From the NCBI RefSeq assembly GCF_011045215.1, contig NZ_CP049201.1: DNA of 64,000 bases, one strand, 5' to 3'. A program made the translations under genes and the position numbers. Shown here piece after piece: positions 61,229 through 62,274 of this stretch (position 1 is the first letter of the stretch; every line of letters starts with the position of its first letter). The notes under the pieces are model-generated. The model saw only the letters and a program-made list of their open reading frames with translations. It did not search any database and was not told where the DNA came from. The DNA is from Escherichia coli (GTDB lineage: Bacteria; Pseudomonadota; Gammaproteobacteria; Enterobacterales; Enterobacteriaceae).

Positions 61229-61393
61229 TTGCTAACGAATCATCCTGGACTTCATATGCCCCAGGCGGCTACTTCCTGGGCGTCCTGCCTGTTCGTTTTT
61301 GACATTTACTGACTGCTTACGACACATGCACCGTGTTGCAACCAGATTTTGTTGTAATCCTGTAGTTGGTCTGGAACAAAAGATAAAATTAAA

Positions 61394-61430
61394 TTGCGAG
61401 ATATGCAAGTAATGTTTGCGAAATATGCAA
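61394..61430. promoter_or_regulatory. Two direct copies of a 15-bp operator-like site (TTGCG-N5-TGCAA), putative OL
   Basis: TTGCGAGATATGCAA and TTGCGAAATATGCAA separated by 7 bp, just downstream of the cI terminator. Confidence 0.5.
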
Positions 61431-61441
61431 ATTTATAGGTA

Positions 61442-61466
61442 ATAAAAAGCCACCTTTCGGTGGCCG
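61442..61466 (-). terminator. Rho-independent terminator downstream of cI
   Basis: Minus strand: GCCACCGAAAGGTGGC followed by TTTTTATT. Confidence 0.6.
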
Positions 61467-61484
61467 ATGGATGGGATATTGAGG

Positions 61485-62177
61485 TTAATTATGTCTCTTA
61501 AGGGTTTGCGACTGACTGATTAAGACCTTTCCAAAGACCATGAATCGGTGTTCGTTTTCGCTAGTAATTCCCCATTCACGGTAAATCTGGTTATCAGAAA
61601 TCACCAGCAGTTTGTCAGGAATCATTTGAAGTCTTTTAACGTATATTTTGTCATCAAAACCAAAGACATATATACCATCACCATCAAACTGATTGATGCT
61701 GACATCAACGAAGATGAGATCTCCTGGCTCAATGGTTGGACACATACTGTCCCCACGAACGTTGATAACTTTGATGTGATTGGCTGGTCGTCCGCCGAAC
61801 ATTGATACAGCATTATCAGTTCTGTATTCGATGGCATGAATCACATCAATGACATCACCGCCCTGGATAAGGCCATTTCCCGCACTGGCACTGATATCCA
61901 GCATTTCAATACGGAACACATCCTTCACCTGCGCAACATCCTCATTATTACTGTTTTTATATACAGTATTACTTTTGTGGGCAGAGGTAAAGAGATCAGC
62001 AATATCAACACCTAAGCTCTTGGCAATATTACTCAGTGTTTGTTCGGTAAATTGTTTTTGCTTACCCGTTTCTAAGCGCGAGATGTTCGCCGCATCTACT
62101 CCTATTGCTTCAGCGAGATCGGCGATTTTCATGTTCTTCGCTTGGCGAAGTTGTCTGACTCGGTTTCCTATGTTCAT
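61485..62177 (-). CDS. Phage CI-like repressor (XRE HTH plus S24 LexA-like peptidase domain)
   Basis: 230 aa; N-terminal HTH (RVRQLRQAKNMKIADLAEAIGVDAANISRLETGK); C-terminal domain with GDSM (Ser) and K (YVKRL) dyad; no SD upstream, consistent with a leaderless PRM-type transcript. Confidence 0.85.
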   Translation of the reverse strand: MNIGNRVRQLRQAKNMKIADLAEAIGVDAANISRLETGKQKQFTEQTLSNIAKSLGVDIADLFTSAHKSNTVYKNSNNEDVAQVKDVFRIEMLDISASAGNGLIQGGDVIDVIHAIEYRTDNAVSMFGGRPANHIKVINVRGDSMCPTIEPGDLIFVDVSINQFDGDGIYVFGFDDKIYVKRLQMIPDKLLVISDNQIYREWGITSENEHRFMVFGKVLISQSQTLKRHN

Positions 62178-62189
62178 GCGTTTATTACA

Positions 62190-62274
62190 TTTCTTTATTG
62201 CGTGATAAGCAAATCAACTTGCGCAAAATAATTGCGTGAAATAACATGCATAACGCGCAATATTTGGAGGGCAT
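62190..62274. promoter_or_regulatory. cI-cro intergenic switch region with operator-like palindromes (putative OR/PR/PRM)
   Basis: TTGCGTGATAAGCAA (62198-62212), palindrome TTGCGCAA (62219-62226), TTGCG...CGCGCAA (62232-62260); SD GGAGGG before cro. Confidence 0.55.

Follow-up and report, generated by a model that had tools for sequence, protein, structure and literature searches.

A proposed operator and promoter layout for the immunity region of an SfII-type prophage in Escherichia coli

We analyzed the region around the repressor gene cI in a stretch of 64,000 nucleotides of Escherichia coli DNA (contig NZ_CP049201.1, assembly GCF_011045215.1); the whole stretch is called the window below, and positions are counted from its first letter. 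The locus very probably serves an SfII-type temperate phage as its immunity switch, the 15-bp inverted repeats on both sides of cI being the operators. Four sites that score at least 15.9 bits in the matrix scan described below are situated within 870 bp and none elsewhere in the window, which is far beyond chance. The two genes and the four sites, assigned to a left operator (OL) and a right operator (OR), are as follows.

61485-62177, minus strand: cI repressor gene, 230 amino acids, with an N-terminal HTH_3 domain (E = 1e-11) and a C-terminal Peptidase_S24 domain (E = 6e-19); the protein is 100% identical to CI of SfII
62275-62535, plus strand: cro, 86 amino acids, a small HTH_3 protein
61394-61408, unstranded: OL1, putative operator TTGCGAGATATGCAA
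61416-61430, unstranded: OL2, putative operator TTGCGAAATATGCAA
62198-62212, unstranded: OR3, putative operator TTGCGTGATAAGCAA
62246-62260, unstranded: OR1, putative operator ATGCATAACGCGCAA (TTGCGCGTTATGCAT on the minus strand)

Repeated 15-bp sites flanking cI had been reported in an initial annotation of this DNA, and all the sequences quoted there were found. A search of the 64 kb for TTGCGN6GCAA gave 4 matches compared to 1.7 expected, with three of the four within 820 bp around cI. The fourth full site, ATGCATAACGCGCAA, adjoins cro in the opposite orientation and had not been spelled out before. Because the motif itself had been defined from window sites, we made a further test with a matrix derived from homologs only. 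The homolog set comprised 220 immunity regions from phage records and viral contigs; the symmetric weight matrix was built from 88 distinct sites of homologs with cI at most 85% identical, none of them equal to a window site. In the scan of the whole window the sites listed above took the four highest scores: OL2 with 21.0 bits, OL1 with 19.0, OR1 with 17.5 and OR3 with 16.0. Dinucleotide shuffles produced 0.58 matches of 15.9 bits or more per 64 kb.

The family consensus, TTGCGTAATACGCAA, has the form TTGCG-N5-CGCAA, with high information at positions 2-4 and 12-14 and low information in the centre. The A or T (W) at motif position 11 is peculiar to this phage, while most of the family have C there, which makes a clean 5-bp inverted repeat. 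A motif search over homologous prophages agreed with the initial annotation: the positions of the sites are kept down to 66% cI identity, the half-sites being fixed and the centres and flanks variable. All 110 distinct upstream regions keep the OR1 and OR3 positions, and all 174 distinct downstream regions have a site where OL1 is. Among prophages with a 100% identical cI (loci L013-L091), nucleotide variation, mostly transitions, clusters in three places, namely the OL2 centre, the spacer between OL2 and OL1 (both within 61410-61430) and the few bases between the Shine-Dalgarno (SD) sequence and the ATG of cro (62270-62274). The half-sites are fixed in these prophages as well; locus L052 has lost one OL site.

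Positions 61200-62600 of the window are 99.4% identical to Shigella phage SfII (KC736978), whose record annotates cI, cro, a cII-like gene and a terminator, without operators or promoters. The cI-cro region is also ~90% identical to that of mEp460, phiSTEC1575-Stx2k, Stx2a_1447/WGPS2 and Stx2c phages, and the cI of several Stx2a and Stx2c phages shows ~96% identity to the window cI. Of 5426 complete E. coli genomes, 1039 carry the region, about one in five. We found no description of the operators of SfII, mEp460 or Stx2c phages in the searched literature, and a survey of the CI repressors of Stx phages did not define which DNA sequences the non-lambda clades recognize.

The genes cI and cro are divergent, with a gap of 97 bp between them, and the gene after cro codes for a CP76/CII-like protein. 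The annotated start codon of cI appears to be right, because the helix-turn-helix (HTH) profile starts at residue 7 and residues 1-11 are mostly invariant. The residues Ala99-Gly100, Ser144 and Lys181 of cI are invariant among relatives. By analogy with LexA and lambda cI, on which such a reading is based, this is compatible with a RecA-cleavable repressor. The Protein Data Bank has no close relative of cI (the best HTH matches had E of ~1e-4 to 1e-2).

The OR region lies in the gap between the two genes and contains, besides OR1 and OR3, the position of a third operator and two predicted promoters: the rightward promoter PR and the repressor maintenance promoter PRM.

62219-62233, unstranded: OR2 position, with a surviving half-site TTGCG (62219-62223)
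62219-62247, plus strand: predicted PR, -35 TTGCGC (62219-62224), 17 bp, -10 TAACAT (62242-62247), start at ~62253-62255
62177-62212, minus strand: predicted PRM, -35 TTGCTT (62212 to 62207), 17 bp, -10 TGTAAT (62189 to 62184), 6 nt, ATG

Among 111 distinct upstream regions with cI identity from 66 to 100%, this layout is almost free of indels. From cro to cI, the order is the cro ATG and SD, OR1, a variable stretch, the nearly invariant core TTGCGCAAGT[T/C]G[A/C]TTTGC, OR3, TGTAAT, 6 nt and the cI ATG. OR1 overlaps the last bases of the PR -10 and the predicted PR start. OR3 takes in the -35 hexamer of PRM, extends over half the spacer and is centred at -28 from the predicted PRM start. The family matrix profile has a third OR peak, with its left half in the TTGCG of TTGCGCAA and its right half in the PR spacer. 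At this offset a score of more than 6 bits was reached by 64% of the distinct relatives (median 10.1), which have full sites such as TTGCGCAATTCGCTA; the window 15-mer, TTGCGCAAAATAATT, has -6.9 bits. The centre-to-centre spacings are 27 bp for OR1-OR2 and 21 bp for OR2-OR3. The initial annotation had taken TTGCGCAA (62219-62226) for a palindromic operator of its own; it is instead the PR -35 hexamer together with the surviving half of OR2, whose right half is lost. Two other candidates in this region were rejected. The swapped palindrome CGCAAAATAATTGCG (62222-62236), midway between OR1 and OR3, scored -49.7 bits as OR2, and its left half is conserved only in the SfII/mEp460 group; ATGCGTTTATTACAT (62176-62190), which covers the PRM -10 and the ATG, scored 6.4 bits, occurs in the SfII type only and was not counted.

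Both OR promoters keep a strict geometry. Of 77 distinct OR variants, 74 have TAACAT, TAATAT or TAAAAT as the PR -10 at exactly 17 bp, and 75 have the cI ATG exactly 6 nt after TGTAAT. With such a PRM geometry, transcription would normally begin on the A of the cI ATG (62177), and AAAGAAATGTAATAAACGC upstream of that ATG contains no SD. Because of this geometry and the missing SD, the earlier proposal of a leaderless cI mRNA made from a PRM-type promoter is well supported at the sequence level.

On the other side of cI, the gene is followed by its terminator, the two OL sites and the predicted leftward promoter PL.

61438-61465 (stem 61448-61465), minus strand: intrinsic terminator of cI, a hairpin with a T-tail
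61380-61408, minus strand: predicted PL, -35 TTGCAT (61408 to 61403), 17 bp, -10 TATCTT (61385 to 61380), start at ~61372-61374

Homologs have sequence-divergent hairpins at the terminator position, each followed by a T-run. The left-hand sites, which had been placed about 60 bp beyond the cI terminator, are actually 8 bp past its T-tail and 55-91 bp past the cI stop. Two sites follow the terminator in 217 of the 220 loci, and in 212 of these 217 their starts are 22-23 bp apart (22 bp in the window). A third OL site produced no peak in the family matrix profile of the 174 distinct downstream regions. The candidate TTGCAACACGGTGCA (~61330-61345, minus strand), considered as a third site, was rejected since it is unconserved in relatives and the family has no third peak. 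OL1 overlaps the PL -35 hexamer and spacer, with its centre at about -28 from the predicted start. At exactly 17 bp, 74 of 88 distinct configurations have TATCTT, and the others have a -10-like variant; the PL-like leftward promoter that the initial annotation had suspected near 61400 is thus found again as a conserved TTGCAT-17 bp-TATCTT element.

The three predicted promoters follow one plan. PL, with OL1 at -28 and OL2 at -50, and PRM, with OR3 at -28 and OR2 at -49, share their layout, and OR2 is at -28 on PR. Since PL, PRM and PR each have a site centred at -28, each would use an operator half-site as its -35 hexamer. With regard to promoter prediction, the result was mixed: a generic sigma-70 scan called none of the three, and spacing and hexamers are conserved across diverged homologs. 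The scan missed them because each -35 hexamer matches only 3 of 6 positions, and the conserved spacing and hexamers are stronger evidence for these sequence-predicted promoters than a generic scan.

With such an arrangement one may ask if the sites are conserved mainly as promoter parts (-35 TTGCNN and its neighbours), the real operators being elsewhere. Three of the sites do supply the -35 hexamers of PL, PRM and PR, and the best-conserved TTGC matches the TTG of the sigma-70 consensus. Yet the distal CGCAA, 10 bp off, is conserved like TTGC though it falls within spacers that are normally free to vary, while OL2, OR1 and a site inside cro keep both halves without being -35 elements. No other repeated motif was seen in these regions. 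We consider this explanation very improbable and retain the sites as operators.

The site inside cro is the fifth-best match in the window, with 12.4 bits.

62296-62310, unstranded: extra operator-like site in cro, GTGCGTAAGGCGCAT, covering codons 8-12 exactly

It is at about +49 from the predicted PR start, and 90% of the 110 distinct relatives have a site at this offset too (median 15.4 bits). In these relatives Leu8 is always coded by TTG, Arg9 by CGN with a free N, Ser11 by TCG and residue 12 by CAT, CAC or CAA. The amino acids do vary, with His or Gln at residue 12 and Lys, Ile, Thr or Asn at residue 10. Fixed codons along with changing amino acids argue for selection on the DNA, and this site is probably an auxiliary operator, which may serve for looping, as a roadblock or for additional cooperativity.

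Several observations bear on the proteins that may bind these sites. Six relatives with 67-100% identity share the cI recognition region VDAANISRLETGKQK. On the other hand, cI homologs of ~40% identity have another DNA-binding domain (AQPTIWRLTSG vs DAANISRLETG) and other repeats, without the 15-bp motif. BLASTP of cI against Cro showed no overall similarity. The putative recognition helices look alike by eye (ATLSRIE in Cro, ANISRLE in cI), and this likeness would be compatible with shared operators. The sites, their excess over chance, their conservation, the promoter geometry and the domains of cI are direct observations, and we infer the identity of the binder, the binding order, the transcription starts and any cooperativity or looping.

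Some points weigh against the interpretation of the locus as a switch of this kind. The OR2 of this phage is degenerate, and lambda-style pairwise cooperativity between OR1 and OR2 therefore cannot be assumed. The matrix score of OR3 is on a par with that of OR1, which leaves unexplained the affinity order that would keep PRM on in a lysogen. To these we add the failure of the generic scan to call PR, PRM and PL, described above, and the fact that the searched literature contained no binding or transcript data for this immunity type.

The first two points also fit an alternative in which the operators are real and the logic differs from that of lambda: cI would be under plain autorepression, without activation from OR2, and the two-site OL and the cro site would serve for looping or as a roadblock. 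A switch with a distal operator is known from TP901-1. Such logic would agree with the position of OR3 at -28 on PRM, with the OR2 centre at -49 from the PRM start compared to -42 in lambda, and with the conserved site in cro 50 bp downstream of OR1. However, the central bases differ between the sites and could set an affinity order, as non-contacted central operator bases do for the 434 and P22 repressors. We regard the alternative as quite possible, while not preferring it to the lambda-like circuit.

The lambda-like OR/OL layout claimed in the initial annotation stands as far as operators on PR, PRM and PL are concerned, and not with respect to the two OL sites, the degenerate OR2 and the extra site in cro. 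Shared with lambda are the divergent cI and cro, the inverted-repeat operators over PR and PRM, the second operator cluster beyond cI on the leftward promoter, the self-cleavage (S24) type of cI and a -10 hexamer placed for a cI mRNA start at the AUG. In contrast, the lambda operators are 17 bp long, compared to the 15 bp of TTGCG-N5-CGCAA; lambda OL has three sites, compared to two across this family; and where lambda has three OR operators, OR2 here is a half-site and an additional site is inside cro. The operator centres are at -28 and -49 from PRM, compared to -20 and -42 in lambda. Lambda has N, whereas this phage type is without an N gene (PMC3851460). The lambda-like circuit as such is a conventional switch design, and the phage type is known and very common; new are the well-defined operator and promoter layout and its previously unrecorded differences from lambda.

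In the circuit that we propose, dimers of the presumably SOS-cleavable cI would bind the 15-bp sites, and Cro would probably bind them too. The -35 hexamer of each early promoter would be the TTGCNN of an operator half-site, that of OL1 on PL, that of OR3 on PRM and that of the OR2 remnant on PR; OR1 would, in addition, extend over the -10 hexamer and start of PR. A lysogen would keep cro and the rightward operon silent through cI bound at OR1 (with the OR2 half-site), and the leftward yfdP-type operon through cI bound at OL1 and OL2. With OR3 occupied, transcription of cI from PRM would be limited, and a PRM start at the A of the ATG would yield the leaderless cI mRNA. All three promoters would be freed when cI, stimulated by RecA, cleaves itself at Ala99-Gly100.

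Downstream of PL we observed two further elements in the sense of the PL transcript.

61231-61300, minus strand: conserved structured leader RNA of ~62 nt, 90.5 bits with covariance model R1
61191-61223, minus strand: hairpin (61204-61223) followed by the rrn-type boxA GCTCTTTAACAA (61202 to 61191)

The leader RNA is located just after PL in temperate phages with unrelated repressors, such as SfII, SfIV, SfV, ST64B, ZF40, YeP1, AH07, SPN3UB, mEp237 and Chris1. Its consensus fold is a three-helix junction made of a closing helix, an invariant GGC-AGGAC-GCC hairpin and a covarying hairpin. In an alignment of 19 diverse copies, compensatory changes were seen at 10 of the 16 predicted pairs. The cells of the alignment were paired in 97.7% of cases, compared to 20-40% with the partner columns slid, and 0 of 500 shuffles reached the observed values. 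A G-U pair is invariant in 19 of 19 copies, which fixes the RNA on the PL-sense strand. In ZF40, YeP1, AH07 and many relatives the RNA begins ~10 nt after the predicted start, and in the window ~80 nt after it. The window copy has a private C to G change (GCCCAGGAAG vs GCCCACGAAG). A comparison with Rfam gave no match, and a second copy in the rightward operon, sought by analogy with putR, was rejected, as the only hit was a 15-bit match at 45244-45293 that is probably due to chance.

Of 74 distinct contexts of the leader RNA, 27 have the hairpin-plus-boxA module after it. Among them are loci that lack the gene lying next to the module in the window, a moron gene for which the hairpin, read on the plus strand, serves as terminator. 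The rrn boxA consensus is TGCTCTTTAACAA, and rrn leaders show the same order of a hairpin and then boxA. The window shares with the rrn operons the element GCTCTTTAACAA on the PL-sense strand with a hairpin before it. It differs from rrn and lambdoid nut sites in that no boxC and no N-type boxB were identified. Leader RNA and boxA together are reasonably hypothesized to be candidate antitermination signals, either RNA-based or Nus-dependent; the leader RNA is also a candidate for a cis-acting processing element.

The closest known parallel is the put RNA of HK022 and HK639, likewise a structured RNA of ~60-70 nt right after PL in phages without N. The put RNA has two stem-loops, unlike the leader RNA with its predicted closing helix and two hairpins, and there is no sequence match. 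Homology with put was ruled out: covariance model R1 found nothing in the HK022 and HK639 loci, and BLAST found only 8-mers (Rfam has no put model). The phages SfII, SfIV and SfV were reported to lack N, cII and cIII (PMC3851460). We put forward, as a tentative and on balance unlikely proposal, that this previously undescribed leader RNA, found here and in many other temperate enterobacterial phages without N (those named above other than Chris1), may act in cis on RNA polymerase to read through terminators, alone or with the boxA that follows it here, and represent a second class of put-like, protein-independent antiterminator. If true, it would account for the passage of PL transcripts through 1.2 kb of DNA with terminators on the way to the yfdP operon.

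That intervening DNA contains the following features.

60650-61165, plus strand: moron gene, phrog_1244, function unknown
60315-60538, minus strand: GC-rich element, an STnc100/PasD-like prophage small RNA (sRNA; Rfam RF02076, 40.3 bits, E = 1.2e-6, full-length match)

Left of 61234 the window diverges from SfII, with the moron gene in place of the SfII sequence; PADLOC gave no match for the moron protein. Inverted copies of AATCTGGATATCC at 60613-60625 (plus strand) and 61180-61192 (minus strand) flank the gene, with 0.04 such pairs expected by chance. This suggests that the moron gene may be a cassette inserted or inverted at AATCTGGATATCC.

STnc100 and PasD are prophage sRNAs (bioRxiv 10.64898/2026.05.13.724894). 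The GC-rich element is best called an STnc100/PasD-like relative, because its 40.3 bits do not reach the gathering score of 47. The same match was found in SfII itself. According to the initial annotation, the PL transcript would run antisense through both the moron gene and the GC-rich element; this holds for the moron gene, and the GC-rich element has the same sense as PL. The STnc100-like RNA has an intrinsic terminator of its own, a hairpin with a U-run, at its end and before the start of yfdP at 60179, and therefore PL transcripts would have to pass at least that one.

PL transcripts might then stop short of the yfdP-type operon, with a closer promoter driving the operon and PL making only a short leader or sRNA. 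The distance from PL to yfdP is ~1.2 kb with an oppositely oriented gene between, and two minus-strand hairpin-plus-U elements are on the way (61204-61223 and the STnc100-like end at ~60315-60360). But no sigma-70-like promoter was called within 59700-60700, and in relatives such as PhiR47_1 the same OL/PL is ~600 bp from yfdP with no forward gene between. Moreover, the structured leader RNA and the rrn-type boxA could promote read-through. Thus we hold a PL confined to short transcripts to be possible and rather unlikely, and keep the yfdP-type operon under PL in the proposed circuit.

Some members of the phage group differ to the right of cII. In PhiR47_1 (L003, 54-242) and S.Typ Adana (L004, 57-258) we found C4 antisense RNA and isrK above the Rfam gathering scores, adjoining an Rha antirepressor-type gene. 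These sequence matches indicate a probable second, P1/P7-like immunity layer in some members.

The operator and promoter map provides targets for studies of prophage induction, superinfection immunity and Shiga-toxin release, and the natural operator variants make a compact set for the study of repressor specificity. The conceptual gain is modest, as the switch is conventional and lambda-like; the conserved PL-leader RNA could lead to something new.

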